From: a virus
DNA length: 64,000 bases
Reading direction: 5' to 3' (one strand)
Virus record (IMG/VR): IMGVR_UViG_3300029922_000003
Position numbers and translations under genes: made by a program. The notes beneath the pieces were generated by a model. It had not been told where the DNA came from and did not search any database. It saw only the letters and a program-made list of their open reading frames with translations. The stretch's first letter is position 1; the number at the start of each line of letters is the position of its first letter. Below are positions 1,212 through 12,850 of this stretch, one piece after another.

Positions 1212-2998
1212 CAGAATTCGATTGTTTGTCTAAAGTATGGGATCAGAGATCTCTCGTGAGTAACAGTCAGGATTTGTAGGTTCTGGCTATCAGAGAGTTC
1301 TGAAATACTTTCGATGATTTCTTTAAAATTTGCAATGGTGTTTCTGTCAAGCCATGTGGTTGGTTCATCTAAGACTATCAAGTCCACTCCTGTCGAGAAG
1401 ATCTCGCAAGCAGCAAACCTAAATGCCAAAGATAGTGTTACCTTTTGTCCACAAGACAGGTCTGACGCTGGAACCTTCTTGGATCCAAAGTCACACACAA
1501 AATCATTATCTTTGTCTACACTGACTCGGTATTGCGCTCCGAAGCTTTGTAGGTATTGGTTAATAGATGAACACATTTGGTTCATCTTGGAATTTACATA
1601 AAGGCCACTAATGCCATCATGCCTAAATACATCTCTAACCCTAGAAATCCTAGACTCATGAATCTTAGTCCCAGAATACTTGAGTCCCACAGTCTTGGCA
1701 GACTCTAGGTCTTTTTCGTGCTGAGCAATCTGATCAACTAATCCACCAATGGAGGAGATTATTATACTTGCCTGTTCCTCTGCATTGCTCATCTCTGTGC
1801 GAGCATCTCGTATATTCATCAGCCCACCTTCGTACGCTTCAGATGAGTGCTTTGGCCATTGATTATCTTCTAGCTCTTTTTTCAAAACCTCAATAGCTGT
1901 ATTGGCGCTATCTATGTTGGCAGTATATTGATCCCTCTTGGTCTCATACGATGACAACTCGCTAGAAGCATCTTCTAACTCTTTTGATATAGCAAAGATG
2001 GTTCTATCTATCTTGGATGATGCCTTACGAGATTCCTCAAGCCTTCTACCCATTGATTCTACAATATCTTCTGTCAACTTGTTCCCACATATAGAGCAAT
2101 CGCCACTTTTGTCGTGAGAGCAACTGGCTGCATCAAGAATCTTGATCATCTCCTTGATCCCTCCAGACTCCTTGACTGCACTAGCCAACCTTTCTTTGAT
2201 ATTTTCTATGTCTAGGTTAGTTACCTTGGGAATAGTAAGTGATTTTAAGCTATTAGACAGAGACTCTTTGTAAGCGATCTTCTCCTCTATCTTTGCTTCA
2301 ATTGACTCTTTGCGCAATGCCCTCTTCTTGTTGGAAAGAATCTTATCCTCATTTGCAGAGTCAAGAAATTCACGAAGAGACGAGATTTTATCCCTCCTTT
2401 CACCTAGCTCTGCCTCGAGATTTTTCTTCATCTTAGAGACACTCTCAATAGCAGCCCTAGCTTGGCTTTCGTCAATTATTGCAGGGTATGGGATGTTTGA
2501 CTTCCAACGTCCAATTAGCTGCTCAATCTTTGCAGCCTTCTCTAACCCAAAGAACTTCTGGAGCATCTTATTCCTCTCAGCGGCCCTGCCAAATAAGAGC
2601 CCCAAAATATCCTGCTGAGTAACAAATACCATATTGGGAAGGAATGACTTGTCGCACCCCAGTAGTTCCAACATCTTATCCGTAACAGCGTCTGATCCGT
2701 TGATAGTGTCCGATCCATACTCCAACGATGCTTCGTTGTTGTGTAGATTCCTGTTAATTACAAATGGCACATCTTTGATAATACCACTTACCTCTATTGA
2801 GCCAGTTTTCTCTCCATAAGTAATCAGGTCCTTCTTCTTTTTTCCAAACTCCCCAGTTACAGCAATAGATATGGAAGAGGCAAAATTACTTTTGCCTGAT
2901 CCATTCTGACCAATAATGCCAACGACGTTATCATGGATATCGATATTGACATCTCTATGCTGAGTGACGTTTTTTAGTTCTACTCTAGTTATTTTCAT
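1211..2998 (-). CDS. sbcC: SbcC/Rad50 (T4 gp46-like) SMC-family ATPase
   Basis: Walker A GQNGSGKS, Q-loop FVTQQD, coiled coil with central zinc hook CSIC, signature LSCGQK, Walker B/D-loop IVLDEPTTWLD, H-loop VTHE. Confidence 0.92.
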   Translation of the reverse strand: MKITRVELKNVTQHRDVNIDIHDNVVGIIGQNGSGKSNFASSISIAVTGEFGKKKKDLITYGEKTGSIEVSGIIKDVPFVINRNLHNNEASLEYGSDTINGSDAVTDKMLELLGCDKSFLPNMVFVTQQDILGLLFGRAAERNKMLQKFFGLEKAAKIEQLIGRWKSNIPYPAIIDESQARAAIESVSKMKKNLEAELGERRDKISSLREFLDSANEDKILSNKKRALRKESIEAKIEEKIAYKESLSNSLKSLTIPKVTNLDIENIKERLASAVKESGGIKEMIKILDAASCSHDKSGDCSICGNKLTEDIVESMGRRLEESRKASSKIDRTIFAISKELEDASSELSSYETKRDQYTANIDSANTAIEVLKKELEDNQWPKHSSEAYEGGLMNIRDARTEMSNAEEQASIIISSIGGLVDQIAQHEKDLESAKTVGLKYSGTKIHESRISRVRDVFRHDGISGLYVNSKMNQMCSSINQYLQSFGAQYRVSVDKDNDFVCDFGSKKVPASDLSCGQKVTLSLAFRFAACEIFSTGVDLIVLDEPTTWLDRNTIANFKEIIESISELSDSQNLQILTVTHERSLIPYFRQTIEF

Positions 2999-3269
2999 CG
3001 CTGTTGTCGTATAGACAAAACATCCTAGCCCTCTCTTCTATGAGTCTCTCTAATCTTTCTGGAGATACTTCTAGGAATGGCGTGTTATAACCAAATCTAC
3101 GTCTCCACACAGTTATGTGTTTGCCTGTTGTAGGGCTGTACTTAGTTGAGGAGCGGTAGATAGTGTCACCACTCTTTAGCGCCACTGGAGTCTCATATGA
3201 GAATAACACCATTACTCCATTTAGAAGATCTAGTGCGTGACTATTTGCTGTGTAGTGTCTGAGCTTCAT
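2985..3269 (-). CDS. Small hypothetical phage protein (LFSYETPVA...SPTTGKHI)
   Basis: 94-aa ORF overlapping both the sbcD stop and the sbcC start. Confidence 0.65.
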   Translation of the reverse strand: MKLRHYTANSHALDLLNGVMVLFSYETPVALKSGDTIYRSSTKYSPTTGKHITVWRRRFGYNTPFLEVSPERLERLIEERARMFCLYDNSDENN

Positions 3270-7293: not shown

Positions 7294-7683
7294 TTATTTG
7301 GGTGGATCGAGATATCCTTCATCAAAGGATCTTGCTACTTTATTTTTGAAAAACCCTAGCACTTTGGCAAACTCTACAGCAGCCAACATTGTTGACTTGA
7401 TGTTGCTTAGTTTGATTCCAAACTTATCCTGCTCAGAGGCTGTTTGTGGAGCGATCTGATAGAATGGGAATGTACCACTGTATTTATCATCTACCACCAC
7501 AGTGAGGGCAGCAAATGATATCTTGCCTGTCATAAGCTCCCTGGCAATCATTGGAGAGATGCTCGCTGCTAGCCTCGAGGCTATCATTGCCTGCACTCCT
7601 GCAACCTCCTGGTCGCTTATAACCCCTGGGGCTGGTGGCTGTTGTGCTACGTTTTCTTGATTATCAACTGGTGTATCGGACAT
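7294..7683 (-). CDS. Hypothetical protein
   Basis: 129-aa ORF, tightly packed in the operon. Confidence 0.65.
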   Translation of the reverse strand: MSDTPVDNQENVAQQPPAPGVISDQEVAGVQAMIASRLAASISPMIARELMTGKISFAALTVVVDDKYSGTFPFYQIAPQTASEQDKFGIKLSNIKSTMLAAVEFAKVLGFFKNKVARSFDEGYLDPPK

Positions 7684-9805: not shown

Positions 9806-12800
9806 ATGGACAAACAAATCATCCCAGTAAGCGATAAGGAACTGGAGCGCCTGTATGGCCAACTATCAAACAAGATCGACTTGGTCGACCTAGTACCCGC
9901 AAGTATAAGTTTCCAAGGGAAACCTTTAAATATTTTACACCGTCGTCCGATGTTTGCTGGGATTTTTAGCAAAACCAGAAAGGTTAGAAAGCATGTTTAC
10001 ATGTGCGCTCGTCAATTAGGAAAATCTACGAGCATCAGTGCATCTATATTAATGAACTGCTGGTGGAGGTCATATTTTAGAGTAATGTATGTTGCCCCAC
10101 TAAGCATTTATACTCAGCGTCTACACTCAATGTTTATGGCTCCAATGACCCAGGGCAAGCTATTGCCATGGCCGGTTGTGAATAACACCTGTACAGCTAA
10201 TGTCAACGAAAAGAGTTATGTAAGTGGGAGCAGATTTGTGGGCATTTCTTGCTTCAATAACGTATCTAATTCATTGGGGGTGACGACCGATGAAGTTTAC
10301 CTGGATGAATGCAATTTGGGCTCTACAGCCCTATTTGACGGGATCAATCTTGACACTCTAGTTGACAAAAAACCAGGGGATCGTATTGTTGGATTTAACG
10401 AATCAACGTTAAAATTAGAATATGACACAATTAAATCAATTAAGCACAAAGGCAAACGACACGTCTGGCGAATCATTTTATCCAACGGGGACCACCTCGA
10501 CTGCACAGGGAACGAGCGAATCATGTCCGACAGGGGATGGATATACCTTGCAGAAATACTACCGTGGCATGAAGCTAACAGATGCCCAAGAGCAAGCAAA
10601 GCTAAGGCCATTAAATCACAGTCAAGAGCAAATGGTCTTTGGGACACTATTGGGAGATTCCTGTCTGACAAAAGTGGGTGGTACCACTCCAAGATCCCAC
10701 CCCAAGTATTACGTAACACACGGCCAGTGTCAGGAACGATACTGCAACCGCAAAGCGGAAGTGTTGGGGGACCTAGTGAGGACAAAGCCCAAGATTGTAG
10801 AGAACAGGGGCTGGGGGGAGAAAAGCTGCGTTTTTGGATCCCTAAGTGCTCCATGCCTAGACTCTATACACCAGATCTGCTACACGGGTACTTCAGACAA
10901 GGGCTTGCCAAAGAAGAAGGTAACTCAAGAATGGGTCAAACACTTGACCTGGGAAGCGATTGCGTGGTGGATGATGGACGATGGGAGCCTATCCAATACA
11001 GGGAGAAGTTTTGTGTTCAATACCCAATCATTCTCAAAAGAGGAATCCAGTCTATTGGTGAGCTGGTTAAAAGAAAATGGAGTGAGCTGCAAAGCCATAA
11101 AAATAAAGAAGAAAAGCAGGAACAAGACGTATTACATAATCACAGTGGATGTGGTTGGGACCAAGGTGCTCTTAGAAAACACCAGGATATACTCATTCCC
11201 AGAGATGGAGTACAAGTGGGCCTATCAGGAAGTAAACCTGGAGAAGCCATGCAGGCTCTGTGGGCAACCATTCGTGGGGAATGGGATCCAACCGTATTGT
11301 GGCGAGAAGTGCAGTGCTATCGCCAAGAAGGGAGTAAAGACAAGATGGGTGGAAAGGAATCGAGACGCCATGAACACAAAACGCAAAGAGAGATACTGGG
11401 AGAACTTAGAGGCTTCAAGAAAAAGGGGAAGGGAAACCGGAATGAGGCTGAGACAGGATCCAGTGCGCCATGCAAAACAGATACAAAAAAGGAGAGAAAA
11501 CAAACTCAAGAAAAAGGAAGCACTGAGGACTTCTCAGACATCGTCGGGATTGCCTACCTTGGGGTAGATGATGTATATGATATAGAGACAGAGAAGAACC
11601 ACACATTCTTTGCTAACGGGATAGGCGTACACAACTGTCAGGATCTTAATGCAGACTTCATTCCTCAGATTAGAGAAACATTAGGAACATCTGATTATCG
11701 ATACGAAAGCTATTTCGGAACCGCTCGTGGCGTTGACAACACACTTACCAAGCTTTTTGAAAACTCGACTCAAAACGAGTGGATAATGAAATGTGGGTGT
11801 GGGCACGAAAATGTACCTACCGAAGCTGGAAGAGTTTTGGAAATGATTCAGATCAAAGGGATTTGCTGCATAAAATGTGGCAAGGTAATAGATGTGACCA
11901 GAGGAAAGTGGATTAGGTCGTACGAATACGACCCAATCCACCGTGACTCAGAGGGGTATCATGTCCCCCAAATTATTGTTCCAGACCGTATATTTCCACA
12001 CGATAGATACATCGAAACTATTTATAATAAACTTCATGGGTCTAGCGCATATTCACAATCTAGATTTCTCCAAGAGTGCTTAGGAATACCCACCTCACAG
12101 GGCGGTGTTCCAATCACTCAGAAGGACATTAAAGAGGCTAGTATCTTAGACATAGACCAACACGAACCACCAAACGCTCAGATCTACCACAGGGTAGCTG
12201 GGGGCGTTGACTGGGGCGGTGCTGAGGTGGTCAGCTTTACTGTTGGTGTAGCCGTCGGGTACAGAGACGGCTGCTTCGACGTTCTAGGGGCTATTAGGCC
12301 CACAGGATTGCCGGATGAGCAGCGTCACTATGTTATCGGAGATTACCTCAAAAGCGTAACCGGAAGTAGAATTGAAATTGTAGGAGCTGATGCTGGATTC
12401 GTTGGATCCGTACAGAACCCCAACCTTGGAGCCTACATGGGGGTGCCCACAGGTTCTATTGCCTATGGGACCACCAAGAAGTTCTTCATGCCCAATACCA
12501 ACAATTGCTTTACCGTAGATAGAACAACACTGATTTACATCGTGTTCACTCTTATCAAGGCTCAGCGGATTCGGTTTCCTAAGGGAGGCTGGTTCGAGCA
12601 GTATTCCAGAGATTTGCTCGCTACCTTCACTGAGGACGCAACAAACTCTCATGGAGCCACTATTCGACGCTACAGCCGCTATCAGGACAAGCCAGACGAC
12701 TTTCTGCACGCCCTTGGATATGCCATCTTCATGGCAGCCCTAGGTATTACAGATTTGCCGTCAATGGCTGGTATGGCTACGAACCTATCTATCAATGCTT

Positions 12801-12850
12801 CCTACATCAACGACATCGGAATGGAAGTCGGTAGATTCGGGAATTATTGA
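9806..12850 (+). CDS. terL: Terminase large subunit, intein-containing precursor (1014 aa; 572 aa after splicing)
   Basis: Walker A ARQLGKST; Walker B DEVYLDE|CQD restored by removing the intein; zinc insertion CGC...CxxC; nuclease motifs GGVDWG and DDFLHALGY. Confidence 0.92.
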   Translation: MDKQIIPVSDKELERLYGQLSNKIDLVDLVPASISFQGKPLNILHRRPMFAGIFSKTRKVRKHVYMCARQLGKSTSISASILMNCWWRSYFRVMYVAPLSIYTQRLHSMFMAPMTQGKLLPWPVVNNTCTANVNEKSYVSGSRFVGISCFNNVSNSLGVTTDEVYLDECNLGSTALFDGINLDTLVDKKPGDRIVGFNESTLKLEYDTIKSIKHKGKRHVWRIILSNGDHLDCTGNERIMSDRGWIYLAEILPWHEANRCPRASKAKAIKSQSRANGLWDTIGRFLSDKSGWYHSKIPPQVLRNTRPVSGTILQPQSGSVGGPSEDKAQDCREQGLGGEKLRFWIPKCSMPRLYTPDLLHGYFRQGLAKEEGNSRMGQTLDLGSDCVVDDGRWEPIQYREKFCVQYPIILKRGIQSIGELVKRKWSELQSHKNKEEKQEQDVLHNHSGCGWDQGALRKHQDILIPRDGVQVGLSGSKPGEAMQALWATIRGEWDPTVLWREVQCYRQEGSKDKMGGKESRRHEHKTQREILGELRGFKKKGKGNRNEAETGSSAPCKTDTKKERKQTQEKGSTEDFSDIVGIAYLGVDDVYDIETEKNHTFFANGIGVHNCQDLNADFIPQIRETLGTSDYRYESYFGTARGVDNTLTKLFENSTQNEWIMKCGCGHENVPTEAGRVLEMIQIKGICCIKCGKVIDVTRGKWIRSYEYDPIHRDSEGYHVPQIIVPDRIFPHDRYIETIYNKLHGSSAYSQSRFLQECLGIPTSQGGVPITQKDIKEASILDIDQHEPPNAQIYHRVAGGVDWGGAEVVSFTVGVAVGYRDGCFDVLGAIRPTGLPDEQRHYVIGDYLKSVTGSRIEIVGADAGFVGSVQNPNLGAYMGVPTGSIAYGTTKKFFMPNTNNCFTVDRTTLIYIVFTLIKAQRIRFPKGGWFEQYSRDLLATFTEDATNSHGATIRRYSRYQDKPDDFLHALGYAIFMAALGITDLPSMAGMATNLSINASYINDIGMEVGRFGNY
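10310..11635 (+). mobile_element. Intein (442 aa) inserted directly after the Walker B DE
   Basis: Starts with Cys; block B region RIILSNGDHLDCTGNERI; blocks F/G VYDIETEKNHTFFANGIGVHN followed by a +1 Cys. Confidence 0.93.
10569..11567 (+). CDS. LAGLIDADG homing endonuclease encoded in the +1 frame inside the intein
   Basis: QMVFGTLLGDSCL, AIAWWMMDDGS, FNTQSFSKEE, C-terminal CxxC...CxxxC and a basic tail. The frame is open from 10422; the start at MKLTDAQ is inferred. Confidence 0.88.
   Translation: MKLTDAQEQAKLRPLNHSQEQMVFGTLLGDSCLTKVGGTTPRSHPKYYVTHGQCQERYCNRKAEVLGDLVRTKPKIVENRGWGEKSCVFGSLSAPCLDSIHQICYTGTSDKGLPKKKVTQEWVKHLTWEAIAWWMMDDGSLSNTGRSFVFNTQSFSKEESSLLVSWLKENGVSCKAIKIKKKSRNKTYYIITVDVVGTKVLLENTRIYSFPEMEYKWAYQEVNLEKPCRLCGQPFVGNGIQPYCGEKCSAIAKKGVKTRWVERNRDAMNTKRKERYWENLEASRKRGRETGMRLRQDPVRHAKQIQKRRENKLKKKEALRTSQTSSGLPTLG

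Follow-up and report, generated by a model that had tools for sequence, protein, structure and literature searches.

How can a homing endonuclease reside inside the gene for an essential packaging enzyme when it is written in a different reading frame from its host, and how would such a nuclease be made? The large terminase gene (terL) of IMG/VR virus record IMGVR_UViG_3300029922_000003, of which we analysed one stretch of 64,000 nucleotides (nt; the window), raises this question. A first-pass annotation, made from the letters alone, had placed an intein at 10310-11635 in the terminase, a complete LAGLIDADG nuclease in the +1 frame that stops at 11567 inside the intein, and non-protein-like filler between the splicing domains in the terminase frame. 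Our analysis leads us to a reading that we regard as very probable, namely that a class-1 intein sits directly after the Walker B motif of TerL and is spliced out, that it harbours a separate, overprinted gene for an I-SceI-like nuclease, and that this nuclease is translated from an internal start.

A class-1 intein directly after the Walker B motif of the terminase

The terL gene occupies positions 9806-12850 as one open reading frame (ORF) of 1014 codons, which would give 572 amino acids (aa) once spliced; it lies on the plus strand, as do all parts of the element described below. PHROG matches flank the insert in TerL (phrog_2 over residues 55-178, E = 2e-9; phrog_675 over residues 612-974, E = 9e-29) and, together with the GKST and VYLDE motifs read in the translation, identify the product as a large terminase. 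The stretch CARQLGKST (10004-10030), about 90 residues before the insert, we take to be the P-loop or Walker A motif from established knowledge of P-loop nucleoside triphosphatases (NTPases). The Walker B motif VYLDE (10295-10309) makes up the last five codons of the N-extein, and the intein begins directly after its Asp-Glu.

Pfam Intein_splicing (PF14890) matches TerL residues 182-610 with 38.5 bits (cut-off 35.8), and this match, the boundaries and our alignment A2 define a class-1 intein of 442 aa at 10310-11635. It runs from Cys1 at 10310 to a terminal His-Asn (VHN, ending at 11635) and is followed by Cys+1 at 11636, the first residue of CQD. The N-terminal splicing domain with blocks A and B lies in the terL frame at 10310-10561, where AlphaFold2 predicts beta strands and where C1, G48, R50, H51, W53, T66, N68, E69, G76 and W77 are invariant in alignment A2; the same alignment places the C-terminal splicing domain with blocks F and G, VYDIETEKNHTFFANGIGVHN, at 11522-11635. 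The C-extein, the nuclease/translocase part of TerL that holds the phrog_675 match, follows at 11636-12850. Block B (10505-10516) reads T-G-N-E: the Thr is kept and a Glu stands where His is usual, so that the Thr-x-x-His pattern is missing. The same Glu was found in five of the six relatives that were aligned or read, and the sixth (P0005) has Gly.

Excision of 10310-11635 leaves 572 aa with the junction ...VYLDE-CQDL... An intein-less terminase homologue in the viral contig L001 (5491-7209), whose C-extein is 76% identical to that of the window TerL, is itself 572 aa long and reads FDEVQDL at the insertion site, with no insert. Since this empty allele has the length of the spliced protein and such a sequence at the site, the boundaries given in the first-pass annotation are correct. 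That the intein splices we infer from the essential role of terL and from the presence of every key splice residue other than the block-B His.

An I-SceI-like nuclease gene in the +1 frame of the intein

Within the intein no stop interrupts the +1 frame between 10419 and the stop codon at 11565-11567, which falls inside the C-terminal splicing domain, and its first ATG at 10422 opens a homing endonuclease ORF of 381 codons (10422-11567). The ORF matches Pfam LAGLIDADG_2 (PF03161) with 87.3 bits against a cut-off of 25 (E = 1.5e-24), and all the coordinates stated in the first-pass annotation hold. Both LAGLIDADG motifs are present: motif 1, GTLLGD, at 10641-10658, with its catalytic Asp at 10656-10658, and motif 2, WWMMDDG, at 10965-10985, with the Asp-Asp pair at 10977-10982 and aligned to the WFMDDGG motif of I-SceI. 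All 18 homologues compared keep the catalytic acidic residues of the two motifs unchanged.

AlphaFold2, run on an alignment of these 18 homologues, gave a nuclease model with a mean predicted local distance difference test score (pLDDT) of 90 and a predicted template modelling score of 0.70. Its best matches among solved structures (Foldseek) are I-WcaI and I-SceI, both monomeric intron endonucleases (E about 1e-14, target template modelling scores 0.74-0.78), and I-SceI is also matched by the nuclease sequence alone (E = 4.5e-6). By sequence and predicted fold, the +1 ORF is an intact I-SceI-like LAGLIDADG nuclease. Two further elements follow the catalytic part. A zinc-ribbon-like CxxC...CxxxC segment (11250-11312) has four Cys that are invariant in alignment A1 and is modelled with two short strands, and a basic tail (11301-11531) is predicted to be helical over residues 245-321 with pLDDT of about 90. 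PHROG matches it weakly to the tails of HNH endonuclease families, and it is probably an extra DNA-binding region.

The two frames are maintained in different ways

Between the splicing domains the terL frame runs through a linker of 320 codons without a stop (10562-11521), in which AlphaFold2 predicts no secondary structure and pLDDT is about 25-30. A functional protein domain in this linker was considered as a candidate and dropped. The ratio of nonsynonymous to synonymous substitution rates (dN/dS), which had been named as a check among homologues in both frames, was calculated by the Nei-Gojobori (NG86) method. In the three comparisons in which dS is unsaturated it was 0.14-0.22 in the nuclease frame; the terL frame of the overlap gave 1.0-1.9 in all ten comparisons. 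Substitutions relative to four relatives peak at the third codon position of the nuclease frame, with 91 there against 47 and 49 at the other two when the core is compared with relative L008. We conclude that the nuclease frame is under purifying selection, because both the third-position bias and the low dN/dS belong to that frame, and that in the overlap the terL frame has to do no more than avoid stops. The linker (the filler of the first-pass annotation) is a shadow of the nuclease gene.

The constraint against stops can be seen in the codons of the nuclease. In the geometry of the overlap, a stop arises in the terL frame where a nuclease codon ending in T precedes a codon starting with AA, AG or GA. 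None of the 114 positions at risk has a T-ending nuclease codon, compared with 43 of 207 positions elsewhere in the overlap. An earlier estimate of about 1e-7 for a stop-free frame under random codons was of the right order. When the nuclease protein is held fixed, synonymous codons are drawn and the probability is computed exactly by dynamic programming, an open terL frame has a probability of 2e-14 under the codon usage of the genome and of 4e-7 under the T-poor usage of the ORF itself; in five relatives the corresponding values range from 7e-4 to 2e-11.

These values bear directly on a trivial explanation of the locus, in which two compensating indels introduced by sequencing or assembly would hide an ordinary intein with an in-frame endonuclease. 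The +1 frame overlaps both splicing domains, and two indels could in principle join the frames. Such an artefact would, however, leave unexplained both the 320 stop-free codons in the wrong frame and the removal of every T-ending codon at the risk positions, and at nuclease identities of 30-60% more than 30 independent assemblies have their frames arranged in the same way. With probabilities this low for an open terL frame, an artefact of compensating indels is ruled out for practical purposes, being extremely improbable, and selection must act on the terL frame. The claim that both frames are maintained accordingly stands in a refined form, with purifying selection on the nuclease and mere avoidance of stops in the terL frame.

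Translation of the nuclease

It had further been proposed that the nuclease is made separately from TerL, either by internal initiation at 10569 or by +1 frameshifting. Internal initiation draws support from the starts of relatives, though a second candidate start has to be added; frameshifting we find unlikely. The ATG at 10569-10571 lies 24 codons before motif 1, and the confidently predicted nuclease fold starts there. It corresponds to the usual start position of the family: in nine relatives (L011, L017, L019, L020, L023, L032, L048, L055 and L085) the +1 frame opens just 0-6 codons before its first start codon, and this codon, 14-23 codons upstream of motif 1, is ATG except in L019 (TTG) and L032 (GTG/TTG). 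We built a start-context matrix from 56 ORF starts of the window; among 902 internal ATGs it ranked ATG 10422 at the 99th and ATG 10569 at the 64th percentile. From these patterns it is most likely that the nuclease is translated from an internal start, which would be either ATG 10422 or ATG 10569.

With a programmed +1 ribosomal frameshift somewhere between 10419 and about 10570, the product would instead be a fusion of the N-extein, the N-terminal part of the intein and the nuclease, ending at 11567. This would fit the observation that the +1 frame has no stop in the 50 codons before 10569 and overlaps the N-terminal splicing domain there, which has a probability, given the intein protein, of 0.066 here and of 0.02-0.05 in three relatives; in L008, moreover, a 1-nt difference yields such a fusion frame. 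The upstream open stretch is explained equally well by a start at 10422, however, and no slippery site or in-frame pause codon was seen in it. A fusion without the C-terminal splicing domain would be unable to splice, and in at least nine family members the frame is closed by a stop 0-6 codons before the first start codon, so that a frameshift fusion is impossible in those relatives. We therefore consider frameshifting improbable, a minor possibility that concerns the window locus only, and favour internal initiation. A scheme with two programmed frameshifts, in which the nuclease would be read as part of the intein, was also considered and dropped.

We searched for a Shine-Dalgarno site before every candidate nuclease start and found none. 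A promoter scan of the region gave results at chance level (8 matches against 6.8 expected); its best match, sigma-70-like with TTGACA, a 16-nt spacer and TATTGT (10362-10389), lies 33 nt upstream of ATG 10422 and is a weak lead. Both results are what one would expect if the ORF were a relic that is no longer expressed, left in a vertically inherited mini-intein whose long linker would be junk. Shine-Dalgarno sites are, however, generally missing from the genes of this genome, and the ORF is intact in all lineages examined, with invariant catalytic residues and the low dN/dS given above. A dead ORF would gain stops wherever it is outside the protection of terL, and the third frame, which enjoys no such protection, has about 28 over 10570-11530. 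The empty site in the close relative L001 is, in addition, as expected of a mobile element. A relic is hence a poor prospect, and an expressed nuclease gene remains our preferred explanation.

Proposed homing cycle and points that weigh against it

In the model that we favour, the nuclease is not part of the intein polypeptide and is encoded by a separate +1-frame gene between the two splicing domains. The whole 442-aa intein, including its disordered linker, would be spliced out after translation to give the 572-aa TerL, and the nuclease would be translated alone from ATG 10422 or ATG 10569. It would then cut intein-less terL at the Walker-B site in co-infecting phages, and repair would copy the intein together with the nuclease into the cut allele.

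Several observations count against this model. ATG 10569 stands at the family position in a poor context, whereas ATG 10422 has a good context and adds 49 residues that are unconserved, and the two closest relatives, L007 and L008, have no ATG at the position of 10569. The AlphaFold2 model of the intein frame was built from 4 sequences only, and because of this even the splicing domains score low. Finally, the Glu in block B, where nearly all inteins have His, means that splicing may follow an atypical chemistry. The block-B His is known to be absent from a few active inteins, and the Glu is therefore no bar to membership of the intein family.

Distribution of the layout and of its nuclease

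A word-indexed search with the intein region retrieved terminases whose 'linker' aligns at 30-47% identity. Five metagenome loci (L007-L011; four from this search and one found through the nuclease) were read as DNA, and in all of them a homologous nuclease ORF lies intact in the +1 frame while the terminase frame runs through without interruption; for P0003, P0005, P0011 and P0014 the frame layout was deduced from the protein alone. Searched against 1.8 billion representatives, a profile made from the linker alone hits 47 clusters (at 50% identity); 29 of these hits reach E <= 1e-10, and nearly all are proteins of 950-1500 residues in which the match is central.

Two of the five loci have peculiarities of their own. 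In L008, a 1-nt difference in the N-terminal splicing domain (at about 2990-3010) shifts the N-extein, along with the first codons of the intein, into the nuclease frame; a 632-codon open frame results and the terminase frame is broken. An assembly error, a defective allele or some other cause may lie behind it. The terminase of L011 (1502-5962), like that of P0005, has two inteins, one in the P-loop and one at Walker B. The P-loop intein is canonical with an in-frame LAGLIDADG_3, the Walker-B intein has the out-of-frame nuclease, and the gene caller had split L011 into separate nuclease and C-extein genes.

Viral and prokaryote contigs were then scanned with the nuclease alignment, and the best 80 loci of each collection were sorted by reading frame. 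Among the viral loci, the nuclease is overprinted in frame +1 of the host in 25 and in frame +2 in none, is fused in frame with a long ORF in 20 and forms a stand-alone ORF in 35; the respective numbers for the prokaryote loci are 2, 47, 7 and 24. One '+2' locus, from Microcystis, is a DnaX with an intein, as confirmed by Pfam, and the remaining '+2' loci come almost entirely from cyanobacterial contigs and have a common DE/CH(M/Q)L junction. At every junction that could be read, the intein directly follows hhhhDE. A scan of viral contigs with the single nuclease sequence had found no relatives, which were reached by the alignment-based scan alone, and deposited phage genomes gave only distant terminase and nuclease matches of 24-28% identity.

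Hosts other than terminases were also encountered. In L018, L031, L055, L080 and L156, the same nuclease is overprinted in host frame +1 of inteins that follow the DE in DEAD/DEAH helicases, a ResIII helicase and a TraG/TrwB-like ATPase from a metagenome-assembled genome of Thaumarchaeota. In three viral loci (L038, 1664-4715; L058, 1792-4807; L084, 1722-4723), a clamp-loader-like gene is split into two ORFs that do not share a frame; an intein N-half closes the first, a C-half opens the second, and a related stand-alone LAGLIDADG gene lies between them. By analogy, this arrangement looks like a split intein of the 'fractured gene' type.

A quick maximum-likelihood tree, whose deep branches are weak, places the window nuclease in a clade of ten '+1' nucleases (support of 98 in the Shimodaira-Hasegawa-like approximate likelihood ratio test). 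This clade neighbours the dnaX '+2' clade with weak support (84), and the sisters of the dnaX clade are the three viral nucleases between the halves of the split clamp-loader-like genes. A common ancestry of the terminase and dnaX elements would be a reasonable reading of these sequences and is not demonstrated, because the deep branches are weak. More tentatively still, and with slightly more doubt than belief, we suggest that one I-SceI-like nuclease lineage accompanies inteins whose insertion point, in hosts that are unrelated P-loop NTPases, is always immediately behind the Walker-B Asp-Glu, and that it does so in four layouts: as an overprinted gene in frame +1 or in frame +2, as a free-standing gene between the halves of a split intein, and as an in-frame fusion. 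The hosts in which this lineage was seen are phage terminases, cyanobacterial DnaX, DEAD/DEAH and ResIII helicases and a TraG-like ATPase. If the suggestion is correct, the terminase element and the published dnaX element would have an ancestor in common, overprinting would be a recurrent and long-lived stage in inteins that gain or nearly lose nucleases and no rare accident, and the element would switch host genes through recognition of the shared Walker-B site.

Relation to known systems

The first-pass annotation had supposed that the architecture is rare rather than new, and out-of-frame intein nucleases have indeed been reported already in actinobacteriophages and in dnaX. The cyanobacterial dnaX intein has an out-of-frame LAGLIDADG nuclease (Phillips, DeSimone and Gogarten, bioRxiv 10.64898/2026.09.14.751524), which, according to that preprint, was first noted by Gorbalenya in 1998. 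Between its splicing domains the intein frame is disordered, and low dN/dS values in the nuclease frame contrast with high ones in the host frame (bioRxiv 10.64898/2026.09.14.751524). The terL element resembles it in having a same-strand overlapping LAGLIDADG gene between the splicing domains and the same selection pattern, and the two nucleases are homologous at 30-35% identity; of the best 80 prokaryote loci, 47 represent this dnaX element. In both, the insertion directly follows a Walker-B Asp-Glu, with DE/CHMLS in dnaX and DE/CQDL in terL. The elements differ in their host, which is a phage terminase in the case of terL, and in the frame of the nuclease, which is host frame +1 in terL and +2 in dnaX. 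The nuclease of the terL intein also has the extra zinc ribbon and basic tail, and block B has Glu instead of His.

Non-canonical inteins of actinobacteriophages include terminase inteins with an endonuclease in a separate frame and an unstructured in-frame middle, and it has been proposed that a free-standing nuclease gene invaded an intein (bioRxiv 10.1101/2025.01.02.630785). The terminase host, the out-of-frame endonuclease and the unstructured in-frame middle are shared with our locus. Their same-strand nuclease is endonuclease VII-like, however, and their LAGLIDADG and VSR-like ones are antisense, whereas the window has a same-strand I-SceI-like LAGLIDADG nuclease in a large, non-actinobacterial phage lineage.

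TerL inteins of the canonical type, whose LAGLIDADG domain is in frame, are also known and include TerL1-e at the Walker-B site of mycobacteriophage terminases (Kelley et al. 2016, PMC5050341). They too are placed in the ATPase centre of the terminase at Walker B, so that insertion at this point was already known, but their nuclease is an in-frame domain of the intein polypeptide. In fractured genes, a free-standing endonuclease gene lies between the halves of a split intein (Dassa et al. 2009, PMC2677866). There, as here, the nuclease is a separate gene inside an intein, and the close relatives of the window nuclease in L038, L058 and L084 are so placed; unlike in fractured genes, the host frame of terL is continuous, splicing would occur in cis and the two genes overlap. 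With I-SceI and I-WcaI, finally, the window nuclease has the fold and both catalytic motifs of a monomeric, two-motif LAGLIDADG enzyme in common, but these two are encoded in group I introns and lack a C-terminal zinc ribbon or helical tail.

The layout has thus already been described in preprints of 2025-26; the terL locus adds a member, and its value is mainly comparative. In the parts of these preprints available to us we found no terminase member with an I-SceI-like nuclease in frame +1, and no report there of homology between a terminase-intein nuclease and the dnaX nuclease, of a Walker-B position common to several ATPase families, or of one nuclease lineage in overprinted, split and in-frame layouts.

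Implications and genome context

Overprinting would uncouple homing from splicing, with the dose of nuclease set by the internal start and not by the level of an essential packaging enzyme, and the intein polypeptide would carry nothing more than a disposable linker. With the terL locus a terminase joins the group, and its nuclease is homologous to that of dnaX, the only same-strand LAGLIDADG case that is well studied; the layout is common both among uncultured large phages and in other ATPases. Gene callers hide it by reporting either one long ORF or fragments. The family offers natural material on the acquisition of nucleases by inteins (the 'splicing first' idea), on the lifespan of overlapping frames and on splicing without a block-B His.

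Nearly all genes of the window are encoded on the minus strand, and their upstream regions are A/T-rich and show no Shine-Dalgarno site. Of ten large proteins, just three gave PHROG matches, to a tail sheath, an ATPase family and an ABC-like family. The source looks like a poorly known large tailed phage, and the longest contig in the terL cluster is about 187 kb. A CCACCC-like motif lies at most 20 nt upstream of five predicted gene starts (at window positions 7300, 42199 and 44756, among others), and TCCACCC is weakly enriched across the window, with 14 occurrences against 7.4 expected.

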